Shown here in pieces: positions 13,521 through 14,399 of a stretch of 15,906 nt of DNA. Position 1 is the first letter of the stretch, and each line of letters starts with the position of its first letter. The notes under the pieces were generated by a model. It ran no database searches. It worked only from the letters and a program-made list of their open reading frames with translations, and had not been told where the DNA came from. Origin of the DNA: an uncultured archaeon. Its GTDB lineage: Archaea; Asgardarchaeota; Lokiarchaeia; Sigyniarchaeales; Promethearchaeaceae. The translations under genes and the position numbers were made by a program. The stretch covers positions 1 to 15,906 of the forward strand of contig CAYRPF010000071.1 in NCBI GenBank assembly GCA_964426185.1, in the 5' to 3' direction.

Positions 13521-14399
13521 ATGGAAAGTGAGGAATATATTATGAAAATTGAACGTCTTATCAAAAAACAACCCTTTCAAGGTAAATTTATTCTGATTTG
13601 CGGAGGATCTAAAGGAATGGGGCAGGAAACCGCAAACCTGATTGCACAAATGGGCGGAAATCTATGTCTTGTAGCCCGAAATAAAGGGCCGTTAGAGCAA
13701 GCTCAACAAAAATGTCTATCATTGCGATCCAAGCAAGAACAGTTTGTGGATATTTTTGCTTGTGATACTACTGACGAACAAGCCTTTAAACCATTATTGG
13801 AAGAAGAAATAGAAAAAAGAGGAGTTCCTGATTACTTAATCAGTGCAGTAGGAATGGCACGCCCAGGATATATCAAAGATTTGACTGTAGATGATTTTCG
13901 CAAATTGATGGAAGTTAACTACATCGGTCAATTAATTCCCATGTTGGCAATTTTACCTCATTTTCTTAAGCGTAAAAGGGGCTATTATGCCAATATTACC
14001 TCTCTTTCCACAGTTGTGGGTATTATTGGTTATACCAACTATACTCCCACGAAATTTGCCATACATGGCTTGATTGAATCGATGCGACATGAATTAAAAC
14101 CAGAAGGTATAAAATTTTCTATGCTGGTACCCCCCGATACACAAACGCCAGGTTATGAAGAAGAAAATAAAACAAAACCCTATGAATGTTTGGAAATCTC
14201 AAAAACGGGCAAAATAATGACTGCAGAAGCAGTTGCAATGGCTTTTGTGAAGGGAATTCTCAAAGAAAAATATTTGATTTATCCCGGAGATTCAAGTTGG
14301 ATGCAGTTCGTTCAACGTCATTGGCCAAAATTGGTGTATTTTATTATAGATGCTCAATTAAAATCAATACAGAAAAAAATGCGCAAAATGGGAAAATAA
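13521..14399 (+). CDS. Classical SDR, 3-ketodihydrosphingosine reductase (KDSR/Tsc10)-like
   Basis: ILICGGSKGMG, VARN, GMARPG, MEVNY, catalytic S (ITSL) and YTPTK, plus the KDSR-subfamily motif PPDTQTPGYEEENKTKP..C..IS. Confidence 0.85.
   Translation: MESEEYIMKIERLIKKQPFQGKFILICGGSKGMGQETANLIAQMGGNLCLVARNKGPLEQAQQKCLSLRSKQEQFVDIFACDTTDEQAFKPLLEEEIEKRGVPDYLISAVGMARPGYIKDLTVDDFRKLMEVNYIGQLIPMLAILPHFLKRKRGYYANITSLSTVVGIIGYTNYTPTKFAIHGLIESMRHELKPEGIKFSMLVPPDTQTPGYEEENKTKPYECLEISKTGKIMTAEAVAMAFVKGILKEKYLIYPGDSSWMQFVQRHWPKLVYFIIDAQLKSIQKKMRKMGK

Follow-up and report, generated by a model that had tools for sequence, protein, structure and literature searches.

A KDSR-like reductase gene of a Lokiarchaeial genome: family placement, bacterial affinities and a candidate role in sphingoid base formation

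Introduction

The origin of eukaryotic sphingolipid synthesis, whose second step belongs to the KDSR family, is debated, and to our knowledge sphingolipid synthesis is not known from archaea. The closest described systems for the gene studied here include eukaryotic KDSR (FVT1) with the TSC10 proteins of yeast and Cryptococcus (PDB entry 8jat), the bacterial KDSR-like reductases encoded beside oxoamine synthase (AOS) genes, and CerR, a ceramide reductase that belongs to the bacterial pathway of the Caulobacter type (Stankeviciute et al. 2022, cited in PMC12872458). For the eukaryotic pathway, an association with Asgard archaea has been described at the level of the pathway only, in a bulk analysis (Nature 2026; PMC12872458), and a preprint at the level of single genes lists GBA2, SGPL1 and SGPP1 as Asgard-sister, KDSR not being among those listed. 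Our search of the literature for KDSR or serine palmitoyltransferase (SPT) in Asgard archaea or Lokiarchaeota found nothing specific.

An earlier note on the DNA analysed here, a stretch of 15,906 nucleotides that we call the window, had described one of its genes as a KDSR/Tsc10-like SDR in an apparent archaeon, with a possible role in sphingoid or other long-chain lipid metabolism and a possible relationship to the ancestor of the eukaryotic enzyme. The gene is an archaeal addition to an already known kind of enzyme, present intact in a Lokiarchaeial genome. We compared it with its homologues by residue conservation, structure, genomic distribution, phylogeny and gene neighbourhood, and weighed the resulting evidence on its origin and function.

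Results

Host genome and gene order

The window corresponds to contig C71 in a genome of 3.26 Mb, 92% complete, of the Asgard (Lokiarchaeia-type) group, so that the host had been correctly taken for an archaeon. The closest copies of the SDR, 67-69% identical, come from the same genus and are labelled Ca. Harpocratesius sp. or Ca. Lokiarchaeota; one of these is from a single-contig 4.36-Mb genome that carries the name Ca. Lokiarchaeota/Harpocratesius. Names in this group are not always concordant: a sequence assigned by NCBI to 'Candidatus Hodarchaeota archaeon' (P0114; L032 6376-7230) is identical to the SDR of genome G141, which is placed in the window's order, and the two naming schemes thus disagree. 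In the window, the SDR gene closes a tightly spaced run of four genes on the same strand and is followed by a convergent gene:

10955..12031, forward strand: NAD synthase (nadE), first gene of the run, linked to the SDR at genus level only (cluster c10)
12051..13061, forward strand: alpha/beta hydrolase (Hydrolase_4, lysophospholipase/monoacylglycerol-lipase-like), 32 nt before the next gene
13093..13503, forward strand: 136-aa four-helix (4-TM) membrane protein, DUF8058 (PF26247)-like, ending 18 nt before the SDR open reading frame
13521..14399, forward strand: KDSR-like classical SDR, 292 aa, with a probable real start at 13542 that gives 285 aa
14401..15849, reverse strand: MFS transporter, convergent with the SDR gene

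Linkage of the hydrolase to the SDR is likewise kept only within the window's genus (cluster c11, in WIN, L025 and L026), and the MFS gene adjoins the SDR also in G210, a genome of the same genus. MFS genes stand beside, or are fused with, several relatives; a common MFS link was nevertheless rejected, as these proteins have no mutual BLAST match at 1e-3, and the window's transporter is not homologous, at the same threshold, to those beside the bacterial relatives. Other genes in the window encode an ATP-dependent DNA ligase, TauE, an AAA/VWA pair and, just upstream of nadE (10296-10919), a Ras/Arf-family small GTPase of 207 aa, of a kind typical of Asgard genomes.

The reductase gene and its conserved residues

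The frame at 13521-14399 is free of stops over 292 codons. A GAGG-type ribosome-binding site (GTGAGGA) lies 8 nt upstream of the second ATG at 13542 (M8), and the starts of homologues coincide with this position, so that the product is probably 285 aa long and the annotated-length frame probably begins 7 codons too early (13521-13542). The gene is single-copy in its genome. Translation of the frame contains the features on which the initial description had been based, i.e., YTPTK, PPDTQTPGYEEENKTKPYECLEIS and a basic C-terminus. Pfam adh_short matches the protein at 125 bits against a cut-off of 26.6; all NCBIfam matches fall below their cut-offs, the best being an unnamed 'SDR family oxidoreductase' model. 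No hydrophobic or transmembrane segment is present in the protein, its maximum 19-residue hydropathy (KD19) being 1.13.

All residues expected of an active classical SDR are in place, including a TGxxxGxG-type glycine motif (G28, S30, G32, G34) and the full catalytic tetrad N133, S161, Y174 and K178. Across 120 close homologues, 17 eukaryotic KDSRs and 127 other family representatives, these positions and R53 hardly vary or do not vary at all. The segment PPDTxTPG..EEN.TKP follows the active-site YxxxK, and in an alignment of 48 homologues its residues P204, D206, T207, T209, E215 and P220 are invariant or nearly so, as are the glycine motif, the tetrad and R53; the six segment residues are kept in the close clade, in 13 to 17 of the 17 eukaryotic KDSRs and in most other representatives. 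A residue-by-residue comparison with these 17 proteins thus confirmed the eukaryotic-KDSR-like motif PPDTxTPG..EN..KP to which attention had first been drawn. R53, located after beta-2, is found in 119 of 120 close homologues and in all 17 eukaryotic KDSRs; it is the sole indication from which we infer NADPH use. The protein is a predicted NADPH-dependent 3-ketoreductase.

Placement in the KDSR/TSC10 family

Three kinds of evidence show that the original family call was right. First, a profile built from 48 homologues and compared with the PDB ranked TSC10 (8jat) as the best single-domain chain, at 137.7 bits against 117.5 for the next; when the single sequence was compared with solved structures, TSC10 came only fourth, though with the longest coverage. 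Second, an exhaustive search of 1.84 billion cluster representatives returned 388 clusters matching at E<=1e-30, and among the best of these were proteins of 317-346 aa, 35-41% identical to the SDR, which their source names identify as 3-dehydrosphinganine reductases of eukaryotes (Balamuthia, Plasmodiophora, one cluster each from Acanthamoeba and a coral, and several EukProt protists). Third, many metagenomic homologues with 45-50% identity carry the JGI label '3-dehydrosphinganine reductase'. The wider KDSR-like family also contains fusions to unrelated partners (ALO oxidase, methyltransferase).

The AF2 model of the SDR is a Rossmann fold with two C-terminal helices (pLDDT 95). A Foldseek search with this model placed 11-beta-HSD1 and HSD17B13 at the top and, being non-discriminating, did not single out TSC10. 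This last result, together with the sub-threshold NCBIfam matches and their unnamed best model, would fit a generic soluble SDR, e.g., a FabG-like 3-oxoacyl reductase or a small-molecule dehydrogenase, in which the KDSR-like motif is merely a family trait. We consider such an enzyme unlikely, given that the gene is single-copy, falls in a well-defined clade whose members are recurrently linked to AOS genes, has a membrane protein as its conserved partner (see below), and has membrane-associated lipid and steroid SDRs as its top structural matches.

Distribution and phylogeny

Among 301 Asgard genomes sampled across the phylum, 51 have a match to the SDR at E<=1e-40, a threshold that would also catch any member of the wider KDSR-like superfamily. 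By family, the gene was found in 6/6 genomes of the window's family (f1), in 41/69 of its sister family (f2) and in the single genome each of f3 and f4, all of one class; the sole positive genome outside this class shows 9% contamination. The other 26 of the 30 families sampled have no match at this threshold, and the broad presence across Asgard archaea that vertical inheritance predicts was thus not seen in the 301 genomes.

Trees were inferred with FastTree (267 sequences) and with a quick IQ-TREE search under LG+C20+F+G4 (90-93 sequences); both are short searches without bootstraps and are mutually consistent. A first tree, rooted with a very long FabG-like outgroup, placed the root inside the eukaryotes, which was taken as a long-branch artefact, and the tree was rebuilt without three long rows. 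The window's clade comprises 28 rows (SH-aLRT 100), in which 20 Asgard sequences are interleaved with named Chloroflexi, Spirochaetota and five unnamed rows. The eukaryotic KDSRs form one group of 17 rows (SH-aLRT 90), four of them labelled only by placement and length, and the partner of this group in the tree (support 90) is a set of bacteria, among them Sedimenticola, two cyanobacteria and Terasakiella. The eukaryotic group is separated from the Asgard-containing clade by splits with support of 97 and 100. When Asgard and eukaryotic sequences were forced into one clade, lnL fell by 128.8 and the constraint was rejected by an AU test (p 0.0066) that was run after the FastTree result was known and whose hypothesis was that of the earlier note itself.

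The motif held in common with eukaryotic KDSR, the 35-41% identity and the published pathway-level association (PMC12872458) are what would be expected if the SDR descended vertically from an Asgard ancestor of eukaryotic KDSR, with the second step of sphingolipid synthesis having reached eukaryotes through their archaeal parent. We regard this history as very improbable. The eukaryotic rows pair with bacteria and are separated by well supported splits from the Asgard clade, the joint clade is costly and rejected, most sampled Asgard families are without a match, KDSR is absent from the preprint's list of Asgard-sister genes, and the archaeal protein does not have the transmembrane anchor of the eukaryotic enzyme. 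The proposed kinship with the ancestor of the eukaryotic enzyme was therefore not borne out: as judged from the trees, the SDR is not a forerunner of eukaryotic KDSR, and the interleaving within essentially one Asgard class indicates that inter-domain transfer accounts for the presence of this family in Lokiarchaeia as well as in Chloroflexi and Spirochaetota, the gene having come from the bacterial side.

A conserved membrane-protein neighbour

The most conserved neighbour of the SDR is the four-helix membrane protein gene immediately upstream, which was found at 11 of the 19 loci examined and at adjacent coordinates in about 28 genomes. The window's protein itself has no Pfam or NCBIfam match, even at E<=5; its DUF8058 label comes from precomputed PF26247 matches on distant homologues that are 37-41% identical. 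In f2 the usual cassette consists of a FabG-like SDR, the DUF8058-like gene and then the KDSR-like SDR. This cassette (L040 3286-12240; also L033-L036 and L039) recurs with genes for a protein of about 530 aa without Pfam match, a methyltransferase and a 375-aa NAD-kinase/DAGK-like protein, and further recurrent genes there encode an aldehyde:ferredoxin oxidoreductase, an Fe-alcohol dehydrogenase and a class-III aminotransferase.

A hand tally of f2 counted 27 genomes with both the DUF8058-like gene and the SDR, 10 with the former only, 14 with the SDR only and 18 with neither, and the genomes with one gene alone led us to reject the two as strict co-travellers. The pair also occurs in Dehalococcoidia (L052 6164-7408), where a DUF8058 homologue lies 7 bp downstream of a KDSR-like SDR that is 36% identical to the window's SDR and has the same motif; the surrounding genes encode acyl-CoA ligases and dehydrogenases, with no adjacent AOS. 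Taken together, the Lokiarchaeial and Dehalococcoidial pairs show a pairing that is conserved across domains, though not obligatory.

The AF2 model of the membrane protein is a four-helix bundle (pLDDT 91), and E42 and D89 are invariant. Foldseek with this model returned nothing at E<=0.001. VIA-align gave EBP (Z 12.2) and the sigma-2 receptor (Z 10.3) as its best rows; since such Z scores lie inside the unspecific range for helical bundles, an EXPERA-like lipid-binding fold is a lead only. Complex prediction for the two proteins scored 0.00, a 'no answer' that counts neither for nor against binding.

Oxoamine synthases beside bacterial relatives and in Asgard genomes

The strongest evidence on function comes from bacteria: an AOS gene adjoins each bacterial relative that was examined within the window's clade or next to it. 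The Spirochaetota homologue P0099 (47% identical to the SDR) is divergent beside a FAAL-ACP-AOS-GNAT operon whose last member encodes a GNAT-like protein; the Chloroflexi homologue P0020 (49%) lies directly upstream of an AOS gene; P0123 (45%) overlaps its downstream AOS gene by 4 bp; and P0122 (42%) comes after a type I PKS gene and an AOS gene, with 4-bp overlaps. The bacterial contig of P0122 (L055; L056 1-6858), with its type I PKS, 443-aa oxoamine synthase and SDR, resembles a gene cluster that would make a sphingoid-like polyketide amino alcohol. In other parts of the superfamily, AOS and SDR are naturally fused in P0127, and P0163 is an SDR fused to a fatty-acyl-AMP ligase beside a FAAL-ACP-AOS gene. 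A ketoreductase that is repeatedly joined to an enzyme making 2-amino-3-ketones would, most simply, reduce those ketones.

The earlier note had called for a genome search for SPT and had counted the lack of an SPT-like gene among the results that would speak against its reading; the search turned up two such genes. The window's genome has four oxoamine synthase genes, two of which (C7:24406-25425 and C40:6202-7221) match best the Bacteroidota SPT model NF047600, at 470 bits; as this is below the NCBIfam cut-off of 640 bits, we call them SPT-like and not certified SPTs. The AOS beside P0020 is 46-48% identical to these two proteins and 38% identical to the genome's KBL-like copy. Neither SPT-like gene lies near the SDR in the window's genome or in the genomes of the same family that were examined, and there are no lipid genes around the two SPT-like genes, whose neighbours encode radical SAM, TrmO, helicase and topoisomerase proteins, EutA and ABC/FtsX. 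With regard to later steps, no match was found in this 92% complete genome to a TLC-type ceramide synthase (PF03798), nor by tblastn to a homologue of the spirochaete GNAT or ACP, and a complete sphingolipid pathway is thus not visible. A DAGK_cat-family lipid kinase is encoded (G000:C5:49911-50276, L049; 103.6 bits). The genome also contains a 2459-aa open frame with a phosphopantetheine-binding domain (G000:C9:60456-60656, L048).

Co-occurrence differs between Asgard families. Among 14 genomes of f1, 10 have both the SDR and an SPT-like gene, 2 the SDR only, none an SPT-like gene only and 2 neither, a pattern that is only suggestive, as these relatives are not independent. In f2, by contrast, the SDR is present in 41 of 69 genomes and an SPT-like gene (E<=1e-115) in 1 of 69, so that 40 of the 41 SDR genomes are without one; most f2 genomes have a single KBL-like synthase, with or without the SDR, and four SDR-positive genomes that are 95-99% complete (G094, G135, G141 and G150) have no AOS at E<=1e-30. 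A copy of the SDR (P0065) is also present in Lokiarchaeum ossiferum, whose family is mostly without SPT-like genes. Families f7, f16 and f29, in turn, have SPT-like genes without a KDSR-like SDR. Coupling to SPT is thus plausible in the window's family, yet cannot be what the SDR does throughout the Asgard clade. The f2 genome G174 encodes, two genes from its SDR, an oxoamine synthase of a third kind that is 33-38% identical to the others (L033 4251-5492 = G174:C27:33259-34437), and similar full-length matches were found in G165, G270 and G335.

These patterns also bear on a different reading, under which the SDR is coupled to DUF8058 and reduces a different membrane lipid or a hydrophobic ketone (e.g., isoprenoid-derived or acyl), the SPT-like genes are independent of it and it has no sphingoid role. 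We hold this to be a doubtful but real possibility. Retention of the SDR in the 40 f2 genomes without an SPT-like gene, including at least four near-complete ones without any AOS, is in its favour, as are the identity of the most conserved Asgard neighbours (DUF8058 and, in f2, the FabG-like second SDR, not AOS), the acyl-CoA-related setting of the Dehalococcoidial pair and the unrelated fusion partners in the wider family; on the other hand, it does not account for the AOS genes that adjoin all examined bacterial relatives in or next to the clade, or for the f1 genomes, where SPT-like genes were never found without the SDR.

Discussion

For the window's genome, we consider it an evenly balanced judgement that the SDR is a 3-ketosphinganine-type reductase that works with the SPT-like enzymes encoded elsewhere in the genome. 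In the most likely form of this mechanism, one or both SPT-like oxoamine synthases would make a long-chain 2-amino-3-ketone resembling 3-ketosphinganine, and the SDR, as a functional peripheral-membrane, NADPH-dependent 3-ketoreductase of the KDSR-like family, would reduce its 3-keto group to give a sphinganine-like amino alcohol. The DUF8058-like 4-TM protein encoded upstream is probably the membrane partner of this otherwise soluble reductase, as suggested by the recurrent pairing of the two genes. A role in sphingoid or long-chain lipid metabolism, as initially proposed, therefore stands in part: the ties of the relatives to AOS genes and the presence of two SPT-like genes argue for it, but the sister family keeps the SDR without SPT.

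Tentatively, and with more doubt than conviction, we further propose that the Harpocratesius-like genus and its kin may make free or derivatised sphingoid bases de novo, through a bacterial-type SPT-like synthase and the SDR docked by DUF8058. If true, this would make it the first pathway of sphingolipid type in Archaea, and one acquired via inter-domain gene transfer and not inherited by eukaryotes. The SDR and the two SPT-like genes together provide a defined candidate route, of two cloneable enzymes, by which an Asgard archaeon may form a sphingoid base. The phylogeny of the SDR argues against a simple inheritance of KDSR from Asgard archaea by eukaryotes and qualifies, for the KDSR step, the claims of Asgard ancestry made at pathway level. 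The recurrent DUF8058 pairing suggests that KDSR-like reductases of both domains have an uncharacterised partner in the membrane.

Among known systems, eukaryotic KDSR/FVT1 and the TSC10 proteins of yeast and Cryptococcus share with the SDR the classical fold, the N-S-Y-K tetrad, the Arg after beta-2 (NADPH type) and the PPDTxTPG..EN..KP segment, and named protist KDSRs reach 35-41% identity. The archaeal protein differs in two respects: the trees and the AU test show that it is no orthologue, and it has neither an N- nor a C-terminal transmembrane anchor (N-terminal hydropathy is 2.1-3.2 in three eukaryotic KDSRs, versus a maximum of 1.13 in the SDR); the archaeon instead has a separate 4-TM gene upstream of the SDR. 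The steroid and lipid enzymes 11-beta-HSD1 and HSD17B13 come out on top in the Foldseek search with the model (E about 4e-19, TM 0.74-0.76) and match the C-terminal helices as well, but they are only 21-24% identical, are without the PPDTxTPG..EN..KP context and rank well below TSC10 by profile. With regard to bacteria, the SDR would serve as the keto-reducing enzyme of a sphingolipid route of bacterial type, the step at which CerR is to be compared; CerR, which is from another reductase family and works once N-acylation has taken place, is set apart here by description. The bacterial KDSR-like SDRs encoded beside AOS genes belong to the same clade or superfamily as the archaeal SDR, with 42-49% identity and the same length and motif, whereas the archaeal gene lies apart from the SPT-like genes and has DUF8058 as its paired neighbour.
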